IMG/VR virus record: IMGVR_UViG_2778261499_000013
Coordinates: 1 to 26,747 of that record
Length of the DNA stretch: 26,747 nucleotides
From: a virus
Taxonomy: Duplodnaviria > Heunggongvirae > Uroviricota > Caudoviricetes
Reading direction: 5' to 3' (one strand)
Of the stretch, positions 4,391 to 8,265 are shown one piece after another. The notes under the pieces are model-generated. The model ran no database searches and had not been told where the DNA came from. It saw only the letters and a program-made list of their open reading frames with translations. Positions within the stretch are counted from its first letter, which is position 1. The number at the start of each line of letters is the position of its first letter. Made by a program: the position numbers and the translations under genes.

Positions 4391-4452
4391 ATCAATAATA
4401 CCTCGTAAGTTTTGTTGATACCGAAGCCCTGACTGTTCCAGCAGTTGGGGCT

Positions 4453-4722
4453 TCAACGTTTTTCCACTTCATTTTGAATTTGCTTAAGTAGCATATTTGT
4501 CTCGTCAAGCCTCTTGTTAATACGGTCAAGGCTTTCTACTAAATCGTTATGTGCATGTGATACTTCGTAATTTGAGACTGATTTTTTTTCCTCTATCGTC
4601 TTTGTCAATCGTTCCCCTGATTGATACATATTGATTAACGATGTAAAAATCACGAGCAAGCAAACTACAATGATTGCGCCAGACAAAAATTGTAAAGAAC
4701 GATCAAGCAATGACACCTTCAT
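4453..4722 (-). CDS. Small membrane-anchored coiled-coil protein inserted between arc and ant
   Basis: 89-aa ORF; its ATG overlaps the arc stop (ATGA); hydrophobic segment [21 protein letters not shown] followed by a charged, heptad-like C-terminal region; no family recognised. Confidence 0.6.
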
Positions 4723-4877
4723 ACCGTAATCCCCTCTCTCTTCAGGCTGTCCATCACTCGCTTGTAAATCTCAGAGTTAACAGATCGCCCGTTCTCTTCA
4801 GCTACCTTGCGTACCAAATCCAATACTTCTTTAGGCCACCGCAAATTGAACTGCGGCATTTTGCTCATTCCTTTCAT
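4719..4877 (-). CDS. arc: Arc repressor (ribbon-helix-helix)
   Basis: Below the 60-aa ORF track cutoff; translated by hand: [52 protein letters not shown] (52 aa), near-identical to P22 Arc as I recall it; GAGG Shine-Dalgarno upstream. Confidence 0.9.
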   Translation of the reverse strand: MKGMSKMPQFNLRWPKEVLDLVRKVAEENGRSVNSEIYKRVMDSLKREGITV

Positions 4878-4891
4878 GTTCACCTCACATT

Positions 4892-4912
4892 ATAGGTCCA
4901 CCGTGGACCTAT
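4892..4912. promoter_or_regulatory. Mnt operator (perfect 21-bp palindrome)
   Basis: ATAGGTCCACCGTGGACCTAT is a perfect palindrome containing the P22 Omnt core AGGTCCACCGTGGACCT. Confidence 0.85.
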
Positions 4913-4940
4913 TGAGAATATAGTAGAGTGCTTCTATCAT
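4912..4940 (+). promoter_or_regulatory. Pmnt-like promoter
   Basis: Plus strand TTGAGA (4912-4917), 17-bp spacer, TATCAT (4935-4940); overlaps Pant divergently; GGAG Shine-Dalgarno 7 nt before the mnt ATG. Confidence 0.55.
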
Positions 4941-4945
4941 GTCAA
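4917..4945 (-). promoter_or_regulatory. Pant-like promoter driving arc-orf89-ant
   Basis: Minus strand TTGACA (4945-4940), 17-bp spacer, TATATT (4922-4917); the Arc operator fills the spacer and the Mnt operator covers the predicted start site. Confidence 0.7.
4920..4940. promoter_or_regulatory. Arc operator
   Basis: ATAGTAGAGTGCTTCTATCAT is the reverse complement of the 21-bp P22 arc operator ATGATAGAAGCACTCTACTAT as I recall it. Confidence 0.85.
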
Positions 4946-4967
4946 TACACTAACTTGGAGTGATGGC

Positions 4968-5225
4968 ATGGCTAGAGATGATCCGCACTTTAACTTCCGT
5001 ATGCCTTTGGAAGTAAGAGAAAAATTGAAATTAAGAGCCGAGGCTAACGGAAGGTCAATGAACTCTGAGTTATTACAAATCGTTCAGGATGCTCTCTCAA
5101 AGCCATCACCGATTGCAGGCTATCGCAACGAAGCTGAACGCTTGGCTGATGAACATTCGGATATCGTAAAAAATATGGTATTCGAAACTTTAAAAAAACT
5201 TTATGGAAAAGAAAAGAATGAGTAA
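4968..5225 (+). CDS. mnt: Mnt maintenance repressor (ribbon-helix-helix)
   Basis: 85-aa ORF MARDDPHFNFRMPLEVREKLKLRAEANGRSMNSELLQIVQDALSK... matches my recollection of P22 Mnt almost residue for residue. Confidence 0.92.
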   Translation: MARDDPHFNFRMPLEVREKLKLRAEANGRSMNSELLQIVQDALSKPSPIAGYRNEAERLADEHSDIVKNMVFETLKKLYGKEKNE

Positions 5226-5487
5226 TAAAGAGCTTGTTAAAAAATCAAATAACTGTGTCGATGCATATGCTGACTCATTTGGATACTCTTCGTTTGGTGA
5301 CGGTTCCCAGCGATTAGGTTCAATTTCTTTTTTTCATAATGTAACTGAATGGCCTGTTGATGAAAGCGGTGATGTTGAAAACATAAAGTACAATATTGCC
5401 ACCATTAGAATGCCTGAAGAATTGATGCTTAAATTGGCGGACTTCATTCGCGACCAACATTATAAGGCTAAAACAAACGAGTCGTAA
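5218..5487 (+). CDS. Hypothetical small protein with Arc/Mnt-like RMPEEL segment
   Basis: ORF overlapping the mnt 3' end (ATG at 5218 preferred over 5203 by purine-rich upstream context); C-terminal NIATIRMPEELMLKLADFIRDQ resembles the beta-strand and first helix of Arc/Mnt. Confidence 0.5.
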   Translation: MSNKELVKKSNNCVDAYADSFGYSSFGDGSQRLGSISFFHNVTEWPVDESGDVENIKYNIATIRMPEELMLKLADFIRDQHYKAKTNES

Positions 5488-5490
5488 TCA

Positions 5491-5940
5491 ATGATGAAAC
5501 ACGATTATTACGAAGCTCCAAATCTAACTGAAAAGCTTGAACAAGCGGAAAAATCATCATCTTTGTACACAAATCCAATTTCTCAGTCATCAGGAATGTC
5601 TGGCATGAATATGGGCATGCTACAATCAAGTGGTGGTGGAGCTGGGAGTAACAACATGCTTGAGGCTAGGGTTGCACGGTTAGAGGCAGATGTTGAAAAC
5701 ATTAAGACCAATCTATCTGAGGCAAGGTCTGACATCTCTCGTTTGCGTGATATCTCAGCTGATACATCCAGAGATGTTGCGGTGGTCCTGCAAAAAATAG
5801 TAGATGTAGACGAAAAATTATCAAAAAAACCGAGTAAGAGCGAAGTCCAGACATTGATATCTTCTGCAGTAAACAAGCAAATACTATGGACCATAGGGAC
5901 TGGATTTGCTCTTTTAGGGATAGCTAAATATATATTTTAG
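5491..5940 (+). CDS. Hypothetical tail-anchored coiled-coil membrane protein
   Basis: 149 aa; Ser/Gly/Met-rich low-complexity N-terminus, heptad-like central region (LEARVARLEADVENIKTNLSEARSDISRLRDI), single C-terminal hydrophobic helix ILWTIGTGFALLGIAKYIF; starts 3 nt after the previous stop. Confidence 0.6.
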   Translation: MMKHDYYEAPNLTEKLEQAEKSSSLYTNPISQSSGMSGMNMGMLQSSGGGAGSNNMLEARVARLEADVENIKTNLSEARSDISRLRDISADTSRDVAVVLQKIVDVDEKLSKKPSKSEVQTLISSAVNKQILWTIGTGFALLGIAKYIF

Positions 5941-6009
5941 CTCACCTCATCAGCTATCTTCTTGTTCCATTCACTCAGTGCCACTGCAAGGAAAACTAAG
6001 GAGGTTAGT

Positions 6010-6399
6010 GTGAAGCGATTTCTTGCTGGTATGTTTTTATTCATATCTTTTGGGGCTACAGCAGAATGCTGGGTTGTTGGAGATATGCGCGGAATAAGCT
6101 ATTCAGAACGAAATAATTTCCAACCGGAAGAAGATGGTTTTAGTGGAACATTTATCATTAAGACAAGCGGTGAAGATGCCAGCATCACATATTCTGGGAC
6201 GGATGCTGGCGGCATGGCTTACAAAGCATTGTCTAAAAACTCCATCATAGGAATCGGCGCGAATGGCGAAACTCAACGAGTTATCGACTCATGGGTAATA
6301 CATCCTAATGGAACAGTTTTAATGTCGAAAACCATTTCTGGTTATGGAAACATGGATTCAACCAAAGCTTTTGTTGGAAAAGTAAAAAGAAAATGTTAA
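6010..6399 (+). CDS. Hypothetical secreted (periplasmic) protein
   Basis: GTG start 5 nt after a strong Shine-Dalgarno TAAGGAGGT (5997-6005); predicted signal peptide KRFLAGMFLFISFGATA with AxA cleavage site; mature protein about 110 aa with Cys near both ends. The ORF-track ATG at 5962 lacks a Shine-Dalgarno. Confidence 0.6.
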   Translation: MKRFLAGMFLFISFGATAECWVVGDMRGISYSERNNFQPEEDGFSGTFIIKTSGEDASITYSGTDAGGMAYKALSKNSIIGIGANGETQRVIDSWVIHPNGTVLMSKTISGYGNMDSTKAFVGKVKRKC

Positions 6400-6423
6400 C
6401 GATTGAATCCAATTTCCCATACG

Positions 6424-8265
6424 TTACTGCTGTGTTGCCTCAGTGGCAAGCAGCGGTCTGATGGCATTTGCAGCGTTACTTAATGCTCTTTCATAGGCTG
6501 GCGTTCCAGCTTTAGTGTTTGCCAGACGTAAGAGAGCATTCCTTGCTGCTTTGGACTCATACAAGCGCATCATTGCACCGAAACCAGCCTCAAGCCCCAT
6601 TGATACGCCAAGAGTCGCAGTTGCGCCAATCGTCCTTATCCTATTGGCTTGCGATTGCCCCGTCTGAGTTACTACATTTGCGGTGTCTGACCTTGCTGTT
6701 TGCTGTAGAACTTCATGAAGAGCATCAAGCTCTTTCATGTGCTTTCCAGAAAAAATAGTGTTGTAAATTTCACCGCCTGACTGAGATTTCAGCTTATTAA
6801 CTTCAGTGATGAACTTGGCTGGAGAGTCACCGGCCTTTTCCGCTATTTTGCTGACGTAAGCTGCACGCATAGCATCTTTCCCTTTATCATCCAATGCGCT
6901 CCAGATTCGTTTCACGTCAGATGGTTTTCTGCTTAATACAACGGTATTTATAAGTTCAGGACTGGCTTCACTGCTTGCCTTGTTGAGCTTGTTAGCAATG
7001 TTTTTATTAAGCACCTTATTATAAACGTTTGCATAATCGGAATTTGCTTTAAGGTATTTTGCTGCGTCTGATGCACCGAGGTTTTTTGCAACTGCGTTAC
7101 GAAGATCTTTTGACATTGCATTCTCTACCATATTGGTAGCTGCTTTTGCCTGGTTGGGGAAGACCATAGCATCTCCCTGAACATTAGATCTAAATGCTGT
7201 TCTGTGCTGACGCAAGAGATCAAACGTAACATCCAAATCAGTTGCAGGGTTTGCTAATTCTTCACGTAGGTTACGCAAGGATGTAAGCAGGCTTTGATTG
7301 GCAGACGTCCCAAGCCGTTCCTGTCTTGCGATCGCTGTATTCAGAGCATTCATGGTATTTGTGGTATCAACTGCGGCATTACCCATTTTATTGGTGACGT
7401 CATTGATAACAGCGCCAGCGGCATCCTTCCGCCCCCTTAACGTGGTGGTCAGAGATTTCACCACATCATCAGGGTTGTACTCACCAAAACGGTCAAAATA
7501 ATTGCTTACCAGCTTACTACGCGTTGCATATTGCTCCGCACGCTTTGAACCTGTCCCTAGCAAAGCCCCCTCAGCATCCTGAGTAAGGCCACGAGTGAAA
7601 GCATTTTTCGGCGTGATTACATCAGATGTCATAGGTGTCACGCCCATCGATTCTGATGTGGCAATTTTTTTCGCTACTTCTGGCGCAATATCGCCTTTTA
7701 TAGCCGTTATTCCACGACCTATTCCCTTTGCTGCTGCGGAAAGAACACCCTGAGCAGCAAGGTTAACTCCGGCATTTTTAGCTGCATTTTGTGCGAAATC
7801 GCCTTTCTGATTTGCGGCCTCTGCCAGTGATCCAATAGCCATGCTTCCTGCCGTTCCAACTCCTGGAACTAAATACCCGCCAATTGTTTCTCCAGCTTGC
7901 GCATAAGGGTCTGTTGGTCGATCTACTGGACGATAGACATCGTCCAAAACCTTGGGGCCACCAAGCCCCTGGCTGATTGCATTAATCAGACTTGCGCCAC
8001 CCTGCAATACGTCAAATGGTATGTTTACCAGACCACGACCAGCCTGCTCTGCAATTTGCCCTGCACTTTGACCACCTGTGAGCCAATCGCCAGCTTGTTG
8101 CATCAATGATGGTTCTTCACGTGCTGGTTCATTATTGGCCTGATTAACTGTTTGTTGCTGAACAGCCTGACCAGCAAAATACTCATCAATGGCGGTGCCA
8201 ATATCTTCCGTGCTCGTACCATCAGGGAAGGTAAATGTCTTACCGTTTGCAGTTACTTTCATCAT
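6424..8265 (-). CDS. Ejection/internal virion protein, P22 gp16-like
   Basis: 613-aa ORF at the position and size of P22 gene 16 (609 aa), last gene of the late operon; start overlaps the upstream stop. Confidence 0.8.

Follow-up and report, generated by a model that had tools for sequence, protein, structure and literature searches.

Does the immunity region of a P22-like prophage encode a third DNA-binding protein of the ribbon-helix-helix (RHH) type, in addition to the repressors Arc and Mnt? This question is raised by a small gene within a 26,747-nucleotide (nt) stretch of viral DNA (Caudoviricetes; IMG/VR record IMGVR_UViG_2778261499_000013, positions 1 to 26,747; the whole stretch is termed here the window), which is a P22-like (Lederbergvirus-type) prophage. 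The gene, termed here orfX, lies directly behind mnt on the plus strand, runs from ATG 5218 (with an alternative ATG at 5203) to 5487 and encodes 89 residues. A preliminary description of the window had pointed out that its C-terminal part looks like the β-strand and helix A of Arc and Mnt, apparently without helix B, and had offered three explanations, namely a degenerate third RHH paralog, a partner that heterodimerizes with Mnt or Arc, or chance. Were a further protein of RHH type present in the immI region of P22, a textbook regulatory circuit would have to be altered; the evidence says otherwise. The reading favored here is that orfX may be the soluble 'A' half of a two-gene prophage cassette that serves as a superinfection-exclusion or abortive-infection module; as a whole, this reading has a chance that falls just short of even.

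That orfX is a gene at all is indicated by several observations. Its start codon overlaps the last 8 nt of mnt, and ATG 5218 is preferred because the corresponding PHROG profile and all homologues begin at MSNKEL. This profile, phrog_4231 (unknown function), matches orfX over its full length (E = 2.9e-52), with residues 6-92 of the longer, 94-residue open reading frame (ORF) corresponding to profile positions 1-87 of 88. Nucleotide substitutions relative to four homologues are in strong excess at third codon positions (e.g., 4/2/18, and 16/8/38 versus the homologue at locus L021), and the protein therefore appears to be under purifying selection; by these patterns orfX is a real, conserved gene. 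The family is small: in 5.8 billion proteins it forms 11 clusters when grouped at 90% identity, and an exhaustive hidden Markov model search yielded eight true representatives in 1.84 billion. Homologues share 30-76% identity and occur in Enterobacterales, as do all representatives with a source name, every one of which is called hypothetical; among 50,697 phage records searched, only that of phage UPF_BP1 contains orfX. In an alignment of 17 sequences conservation extends along the whole length (D19, F21, Y23, S24, G27, S35, F38, F39, W45, A61, M65, E67, L73, A74, I77 and Q80), and the 'RMP' triplet is not strict, its Arg being replaced by Lys in 3 of the 17 members and its Pro by Ser, Thr or Asp in 5. 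Read directly, the sequence contains neither a hydrophobic segment nor a signal peptide.

The resemblance to Arc and Mnt is readily located. The peptide NIATIRMPEELMLKLADFIRDQ occupies residues 59-80 (N59-Q80; window 5392-5457), the ORF ends nine residues later (HYKAKTNES, with the stop codon at 5485-5487), and the strings to which the peptide had been aligned, FNFRMPLEVREKLKLRA in Mnt and FNLRWPKEVLDLVRKVA in Arc, are found in the window's own mnt and arc. How much the resemblance means is a separate question. BLASTP finds no match between orfX and Arc, and aligns orfX with Mnt at E = 1.3 through a different segment (NKELVKKSNNCVDAYADSFGY versus NSELLQIVQDALSKPSPIAGY). Within the 22 columns of the register originally proposed there are six identities to Mnt and three to Arc. 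The best ungapped 10-mer shared with Mnt (RMPEELMLKL in orfX versus RMPLEVREKL) scores 25, which is reached by 119 of 2000 shuffles (6%), and the best 10-mer shared with Arc is reached by 632 of 2000 (32%). Judged in this way, pairwise similarity of orfX to Arc and Mnt is at the chance level.

Profile comparison gives a somewhat better match. When 17 orfX relatives are compared to nine Arc/Mnt RHH domains using hhalign, a single local match of 16 columns appears in the register of the preliminary description (probability 22%, P = 0.00095). None of 300 column-shuffled alignments reaches the observed 21.9 (null 9.7 ± 2.2, maximum 19.5) and the reversed alignment gives 9.8, this null being a lenient one in which shuffling destroys the periodicity of secondary structure; moreover, the resemblance was picked after a scan of the whole window. 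None of 11 family members matches an RHH model in Pfam, even with the cutoff relaxed to E ≤ 10, whereas the same tool scores the window's own Mnt and Arc at the 1e-27 level with PF03869: mnt (4968-5225, plus strand), a true RHH repressor gene including the Mnt tetramerization tail, matches PF03869 (Arc) at 1.4e-27 and PF11423 (Repressor_Mnt) at 3e-16, and arc (4719-4883, minus strand) matches PF03869 at 1.9e-27. In terms of sequence comparison, then, the Arc/Mnt resemblance is a short motif that rises above a simple null and lies far below what would support homology.

One way to account for such a motif is ancestry at the level of a fragment: the strand and helix of orfX would descend from the initial half of an RHH gene (mnt, for example) and have been grafted into a protein having a different fold and no repressor role. 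In its favor are the profile score, which exceeds every column shuffle and the reversed control, and the physical position of orfX next to mnt in several P22-like lineages. The match spans only 14-16 columns, however, at the low probability and against the lenient null just described; orfX has no DNA-level similarity to mnt; and an unrelated repeat protein, P0020, matches the same segment of orfX through a unit (N-L-D-T-I-R-L...) that it contains 11 times, which argues that the motif recurs by convergence. Fragment-level ancestry is accordingly given only a slim chance. P0020 itself (1964 residues), which surfaced in the exhaustive search at E = 4e-4, was considered as an orfX relative and rejected as a repeat protein with a summed score and a convergent motif. 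Each of its 11 copies of ...NLDTIRLNRQAIIDTA... matches orfX positions 54-83, and therefore the N-x-x-T-I-R-[L/M] motif plus helix recurs in unrelated proteins. (The eleven-fold match of this giant protein is exemplified by ...KRNLDTIRLNRQAIIDTAEHIRTDIKKLD....) The RMP-x-E junction of orfX is best described as a convergent local motif, in which a strand ending in Arg plus a hydrophobic residue leads into a Pro-capped amphipathic helix.

Structure prediction places this motif within a fold unlike that of Arc and Mnt. AlphaFold2 models of orfX, both built from shallow alignments, have a mean predicted local distance difference test score (pLDDT) of 76.5 (11 sequences) or 82.4 (17 sequences), and in the latter the blocks covering residues 21-80 score 78-96. 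The two models have the same topology. About 19 low-confidence residues precede a sheet comprising β1 (residues 20-26) and β2 (33-46; β1 and β2 together, window 5275-5355), which are associated with the first nine of the conserved residues listed above (D19 to W45, invariant or nearly so), and β3 (54-66, ENIKYNIATIRMP; 5377-5415; block pLDDT 84-95), the previously described 'Arc/Mnt-like β-strand', within which the hhalign match falls. Next comes the former 'helix A' (67-86, EELMLKLADFIRDQHYKAKT; 5416-5475), which is the only helix and is followed by nothing; all of these elements are encoded on the plus strand. In both models β3 takes the third place in an antiparallel meander formed within a single chain, and the helix packs on that sheet.

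The preliminary description was thus right about the peptide and about its secondary structure, inasmuch as both models give a strand at 54-66 and a helix from P66 or E67, and right that helix B is missing, inasmuch as all 17 family members end no more than 13 residues past the helix; the likeness to Arc and Mnt is borderline and below homology grade. What orfX and these repressors (PF03869) have in common is a strand that terminates in R-[M/W]-P and leads into an amphipathic helix with a Pro/Glu cap, together with the adjacency of mnt in this window. They differ in that orfX lacks helix B, the G-x-S/T turn (both of which are absent throughout the 17-sequence alignment) and a profile match; in that its motif is C-terminal, after about 55 other residues; in that its strand is predicted to pair within its own chain; and in that its family occurs mostly without Mnt or Arc. 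A circular permutation, in which N-terminal residues of orfX would serve as 'helix B', was also considered, prompted by the BLASTP segment that aligns with Mnt at E = 1.3; it was dropped because residues 1-19 are of low confidence and non-helical in both models and residues 20-26 form a strand.

Structural searches yield no better candidate. Foldseek finds nothing in the PDB below E = 0.06, and in neither run do the 60 listed matches include a protein of the Arc, MetJ or CopG type; a search of PDB sequences with the orfX family profile finds nothing related (best E = 0.33). COMM domains (COMMD and bacterial COMMD-like proteins; e.g., 8f2r_G, 8esd_S and 9q6a_A) share with the orfX models a three-stranded antiparallel sheet plus an extended C-terminal helix; they differ in that identity to orfX is 3-12% and in that orfX has neither the helical N-terminal (HN) domain nor a match to COMM in Pfam, so that the likeness, as modeled, is one of shape only. 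A sheet of this kind could also be imagined to bind single-stranded DNA or RNA in the manner of PC4, PUR-alpha or Whirly proteins, in which case orfX would be a sensor or regulator and its downstream neighbor a bystander or effector; this is regarded as improbable.

Does orfX nevertheless keep company with Mnt? Thirty-nine further orfX loci were fetched and the window's neighboring genes were mapped onto them using tblastn. In 10 of these loci mnt lies upstream of orfX (L003-L007, L031-L034 and, with one ORF between, L040); the other 29 have no adjacent mnt. More commonly (L008-L030, L036 and L002) orfX follows a cI-type repressor gene (HTH_3 plus Peptidase_S24) at a distance of 60-80 nt and faces recombination genes, the location that rexAB has in lambdoid prophages; L035 and L037 have it in a moron slot beside the tape-measure gene. 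A form 95% identical to the window's orfX (that of locus L008) is present in 205 of 5426 complete Escherichia coli genomes (~4%), including O26 and Shiga toxin-producing E. coli (STEC)-type strains, and in the lambdoid prophage of E. coli strain E2865 no Arc-family gene is annotated from integrase to portal.

These observations allow the RHH explanation to be weighed as a whole. It holds that orfX is a degenerate third paralog, or a half-RHH protein that pairs with Mnt or Arc to modulate immI control, and it can appeal to the local profile match, which falls exactly in the register of strand and helix A over 16 columns, and to the position of orfX, which overlaps mnt here and follows it in about 10 of 39 loci. 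A degenerate paralog is at odds with the missing Pfam match, the missing turn and helix B and the predicted meander-plus-helix fold: modeled alone, orfX shows no RHH-like fold, and its 'Arc-like' strand lies within an intramolecular sheet. An obligate partnership with Mnt or Arc is untenable because 29 of the 39 loci lack mnt and a near-identical orfX occurs in the E2865 prophage, which has no annotated Arc-family gene. Thus orfX very probably is not an RHH protein, and a role as third paralog or half-RHH partner is hardly credible. Of the three original explanations, chance similarity comes closest, yet the match is slightly better than the shuffle null.

What orfX does keep company with is the gene that follows. 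This gene (orf149; 5491-5940, plus strand; phrog_3556, E = 8.6e-59), whose product is termed here B, starts 3 nt after the orfX stop codon and encodes 149 residues. B begins with an N-terminal MMKHDYYEAPNL motif, continues through a Ser/Gly-rich linker into a coiled-coil-like, helical region that starts near residue 56 (MLEARVARLEADVENIK...), and ends in a C-terminal hydrophobic anchor (residues 131-149; Kyte-Doolittle maximum 1.57 at residue 131); in Pfam it obtains only sub-threshold matches to many coiled-coil families. An orf149 relative lies directly downstream of orfX in most of the 39 loci, as judged by tblastn. Upon inspection of the ORFs at 14 representative loci, the next ORF had the same build in all 14, with a gap of -41 to +12 nt: the N-terminal half is of low complexity and rich in Ser, Gly and Gln, a helical region with heptad-like character comes next, and a single hydrophobic segment (Kyte-Doolittle maxima 1.57-3.06) lies at the C-terminus. 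That orfX and B form an obligate A-B cassette can therefore be held with high confidence. Because orfX lacks a hydrophobic segment and B has one at its C-terminus, the pair would consist of a soluble protein and a tail-anchored membrane protein, the bulk of which should face the cytoplasm if this topology is read correctly from sequence.

The two genes also share a short sequence. An in-frame direct repeat encodes DVENIKYN in orfX (5371-5394, plus strand) and DVENIKTN in orf149 (5689-5712, plus strand), the copies being identical at 21 of 24 nt and spaced 318 nt apart. A 134-residue E. coli database protein, P0005, consists of orfX residues 1-57 joined to orf149 residues 73-149, a natural fusion attributable to deletion between the two copies. 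The VENIK-x-N motif is kept independently by the orfX and orf149 families.

Within the window the cassette appears to belong to the mnt transcription unit. Divergent Pant/Pmnt-like promoters lie at 4889-4945, and in a consensus scan the Pmnt-like site (TTGAGA-17-TATCAT; 4912-4940, plus strand) is the sole promoter-like site on the plus strand from arc to orf149; the same kind of scan, applied to the window only, detects neither a terminator-like nor a promoter-like site between mnt and orf149. On this reading mnt is the upstream gene of a transcription unit shared with orfX. The nearest sequenced phage, Salmonella phage UPF_BP1, is 97% identical across window positions 4739-6015, and both of its ORFs after mnt are annotated as hypothetical proteins.

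Further insight comes from B. A search with orf149 returns 57 clusters, most of which cover only residues 56-149, a stretch that begins at the Gly-rich linker, includes MLEARVAKLEADVENIK... and ends with the anchor. These shorter relatives also lie directly after cI-type repressor genes, and the small ORFs that abut them upstream, encoding a 112-residue Cys-rich protein (phrog_4293) and a 140-residue protein (phrog_5893), are unrelated to orfX. Of 80 viral loci found with a B profile, all but one contain a small ORF that abuts the B gene on its upstream side; these 79 ORFs fall into six sequence clusters, with orfX accounting for eight loci, and 53 of the 79 loci follow a lysogeny repressor gene (44 a cI-like gene and 9 mnt).

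Which part of B varies with its upstream partner? The N-termini were compared by motif count; clustering by blastp-short merged nearly everything via Gly runs. Within the 80-locus set the motif [Y/H/F]-Y-[E/A/S]-x-[P/A/S/T] occurs in four of four distinct B N-termini linked to orfX versus none of 46 linked to other A types, and a YYE-like motif recurs in most orfX loci of the first, 39-locus set. An N-terminal [D/N]-Y-Y-E-x-P-x-L motif is present in B exclusively where orfX is the A protein. The remainder of B is exchanged: in the cassette at L008, orfX is 95% identical and B still starts with MKHDYYEAPNL, yet B as a whole is only 34% identical, and a further B protein, P0040, joins an N-terminal half of the window's type to a C-terminal half of the L008 type at KLE[A/S]DV. 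In short, the first dozen residues of B track the type of A and the part comprising coiled coil and anchor is swapped. Since the motif tracks orfX while the anchor part is swapped, orfX plus the B N-terminus would constitute a functional unit, most simply a direct complex; that A binds the N-terminus of B is put at an even chance.

Members of the B family, in which M-L-E-A-R-V-A-K-L-E... comes after the Gly-rich linker, have as upstream partners small proteins of at least five unrelated kinds (phrog_4231, 12039, 4293, 5893 and others). They reside mostly in lambdoid prophages, in the rexAB slot, and are always unannotated; the genera concerned are Escherichia, Salmonella, Klebsiella, Enterobacter and others, and the loci include positions 1994-2833 of L048 (HK544 genes 41/40), positions 2282-2833 of L049 (VT1-Sakai H0053), L041-L047 and L051-L130. 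HK544 gp41/gp40 and VT1-Sakai ECs2991/ECs2992 (H0053), corresponding to PHROGs 12039 and 12602, are uncharacterized sister cassettes of the one described here: their B proteins are 35% identical over residues 52-149 and likewise contain a Gly-rich linker, a coiled coil and an anchor at the C-terminus, and their small abutting upstream genes share the rexAB slot, lying (HK544_041/040 and H0053) between cI and the annotated PRM terminator or PL. They differ in that their A protein (93 residues) has no detectable similarity to orfX and in that the N-terminal part of their B is another, longer module. HK544_041, which is similar in size to orfX, was considered as a remote homologue and rejected (hhalign probability 0.8%).

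The cassette thus mostly sits directly downstream of, and co-oriented with, a lysogeny repressor gene--mnt here and a cI-type gene in lambdoid loci--and both slots are known for exclusion functions. The interval between cI and N, a mosaic hotspot containing the rexAB and bstA abortive-infection systems, shares the highly active repressor promoter (PMC8585504). The interval between mnt and gene 16 contains, in P22, the inner-membrane exclusion protein SieA, a single protein of about 19 kDa whose gene is present in only 22 of 66 P22-like phages (PMC10883804), and this 'ant moron' region is variable among P22-like phages (PMC2629481). The cassette resembles sieA in occupying the same interval, in being transcribed in the direction of mnt and in being convergent with the ejection-protein gene 16; it differs in consisting of two genes without similarity to SieA and in occurring also in prophages that are not P22-like. 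Its lambdoid relatives resemble lambda rexA and rexB in lying directly after cI, inside the PRM unit, and the layout of a soluble plus a membrane protein made in the lysogen would be the same, if the cassette is expressed as proposed. RexB is polytopic and RexA has about 280 residues; B, in contrast, has one C-terminal anchor and a coiled coil, A has 89 residues, and no sequence similarity of the cassette to a defense model was found.

From these parallels the favored mechanism can be sketched. The cassette would be made in the lysogen, from Pmnt or PRM. orfX would be a small cytoplasmic protein having a three-stranded antiparallel sheet and one C-terminal helix, and B an inner-membrane protein anchored by its tail, in which a disordered N-terminal half rich in Ser and Gly is followed by a coiled-coil-like region and the single C-terminal anchor. 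orfX would bind the N-terminal peptide of its B partner and act as a specificity or regulatory subunit, adaptor or sensor, and the pair would work at the inner membrane against a superinfecting phage, either by preventing its DNA from entering or through abortive infection. That the cassette has such a function, argued by analogy with the occupants of these slots, is a tentative proposal. More tentative still is the broader idea that orfX and orf149 belong to a previously undescribed family of modular cassettes in Enterobacterales, co-transcribed with cI or mnt, in which a shared B effector carries a swappable N-terminal peptide matched to one of at least five unrelated A proteins and in which A sets the specificity of exclusion or abortive infection.

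Several points weigh against this favored reading. orfX has no match to a Pfam family (E ≤ 1), to NCBIfam or to PADLOC, and its family is named 'hypothetical protein' throughout the databases. For orf149, PADLOC yields only PDC-S66 at E = 0.042 and no NCBIfam or Pfam family scores above its cutoff; its hydrophobic segment, at the Kyte-Doolittle maximum given above, is borderline as a membrane span. The interaction between orfX and B is inferred from co-occurrence, among orfX loci that are not phylogenetically independent, and the defense role from position and architecture. The hhalign match does exceed the column-shuffle null, and there may be a remote, fragment-level relationship to Arc and Mnt. 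Within the literature collection searched, no functional study of the cassette, of ECs2991/ECs2992 or of similar two-gene systems was found, and no experiment on any family member.

The same layout lends itself to two other functional interpretations. In the first, orf149 encodes a membrane-damaging or holin-like protein and orfX, upstream, its antidote or timer, the pair serving for addiction or for the timing of lysis. The tight coupling of the genes, with the small soluble one upstream, would suit such a toxin and neutralizer, as would a weak likeness of B to XhlA/'hemolysin' and holin PHROGs (phrog_937, E = 0.0019; PF10779, E = 0.002, below its cutoff; and phrog_10340); these matches, however, all lie below curated thresholds and are typical of coiled coils, the cassette occupies slots that are expressed in the lysogen rather than lysis cassettes, and the late and lysis region of the window is separate, lying elsewhere. 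This interpretation is therefore considered unlikely. In the second, which is equally unlikely, the cassette brings about lysogenic conversion of host physiology--an envelope, stress or virulence trait--and is not directed at phages. The positional evidence is the same, since morons expressed from prophages include bor, lom and iss-type genes, and the occurrence of the cassette in the 205 E. coli genomes, among them O26 and STEC-type strains, fits as well; yet neither protein has a signal peptide or a part exposed at the surface, both are predicted to face the cytoplasm, and the interchangeable A modules look more like a specificity that varies in response to a changing target.

The surroundings of the cassette call for a few further remarks. 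On the minus strand, ant (about 3500 to 4390/4456; KilA-N plus P22_AR_C) is separated from arc by an extra 89-residue ORF (4453-4722, minus strand; phrog_27312, unknown function) having an N-terminal hydrophobic segment, which is inserted between arc and sar/ant; in P22 arc and ant are adjacent. The sar antisense RNA is found at 4392-4458 on the plus strand (Rfam RF00262, 62.5 bits, E = 6e-12), just upstream of the probable true ant start (ATG at about 4390), a start supported by a PHROG match that begins at residue 23 of the ORF initiated at TTG 4456. Downstream of orf149 is a 145-residue ORF (5962-6399, plus strand; phrog_2651, unknown function), whose profile match begins at residue 30, making GTG 6011 the likely start; read from there, it has a Sec-type signal peptide (KRFLAGMFLFISFGATA/E). 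This ORF is common to phages Emek and ST-35, where it lies beside the injection-protein gene, only 19 of its codons are left in UPF_BP1, and it is possibly a separate, periplasmic moron. The homologue of the ejection-protein gene 16 (6424-8265, minus strand) converges upon it. At this junction is a 19-nt inverted repeat (arms at 6343-6361 and 6403-6421, 84% complementary, with 41 nt between them), one arm of which lies in the 3' end of the 145-residue ORF and the other just upstream of the gene 16 stop codon; the consensus terminator scan missed it, and it is possibly a bidirectional terminator.

The significance of orfX thus lies with its partner rather than with Arc and Mnt: the two belong to a widespread, unnamed two-gene cassette in two classic lysogen-expressed slots, one following cI (the site of rexAB in lambda) and the other following mnt (the site of sieA in P22). 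With small subunits that are interchangeable and a membrane-anchored partner that is shared, the cassette provides a clear and cheap experimental target for a new mechanism of prophage exclusion, and the N-terminal motif of B offers a specific interaction to examine. The cassette may be viewed as a reasonable candidate, of modest interest, for a new module of exclusion or abortive infection that is expressed in the lysogen.

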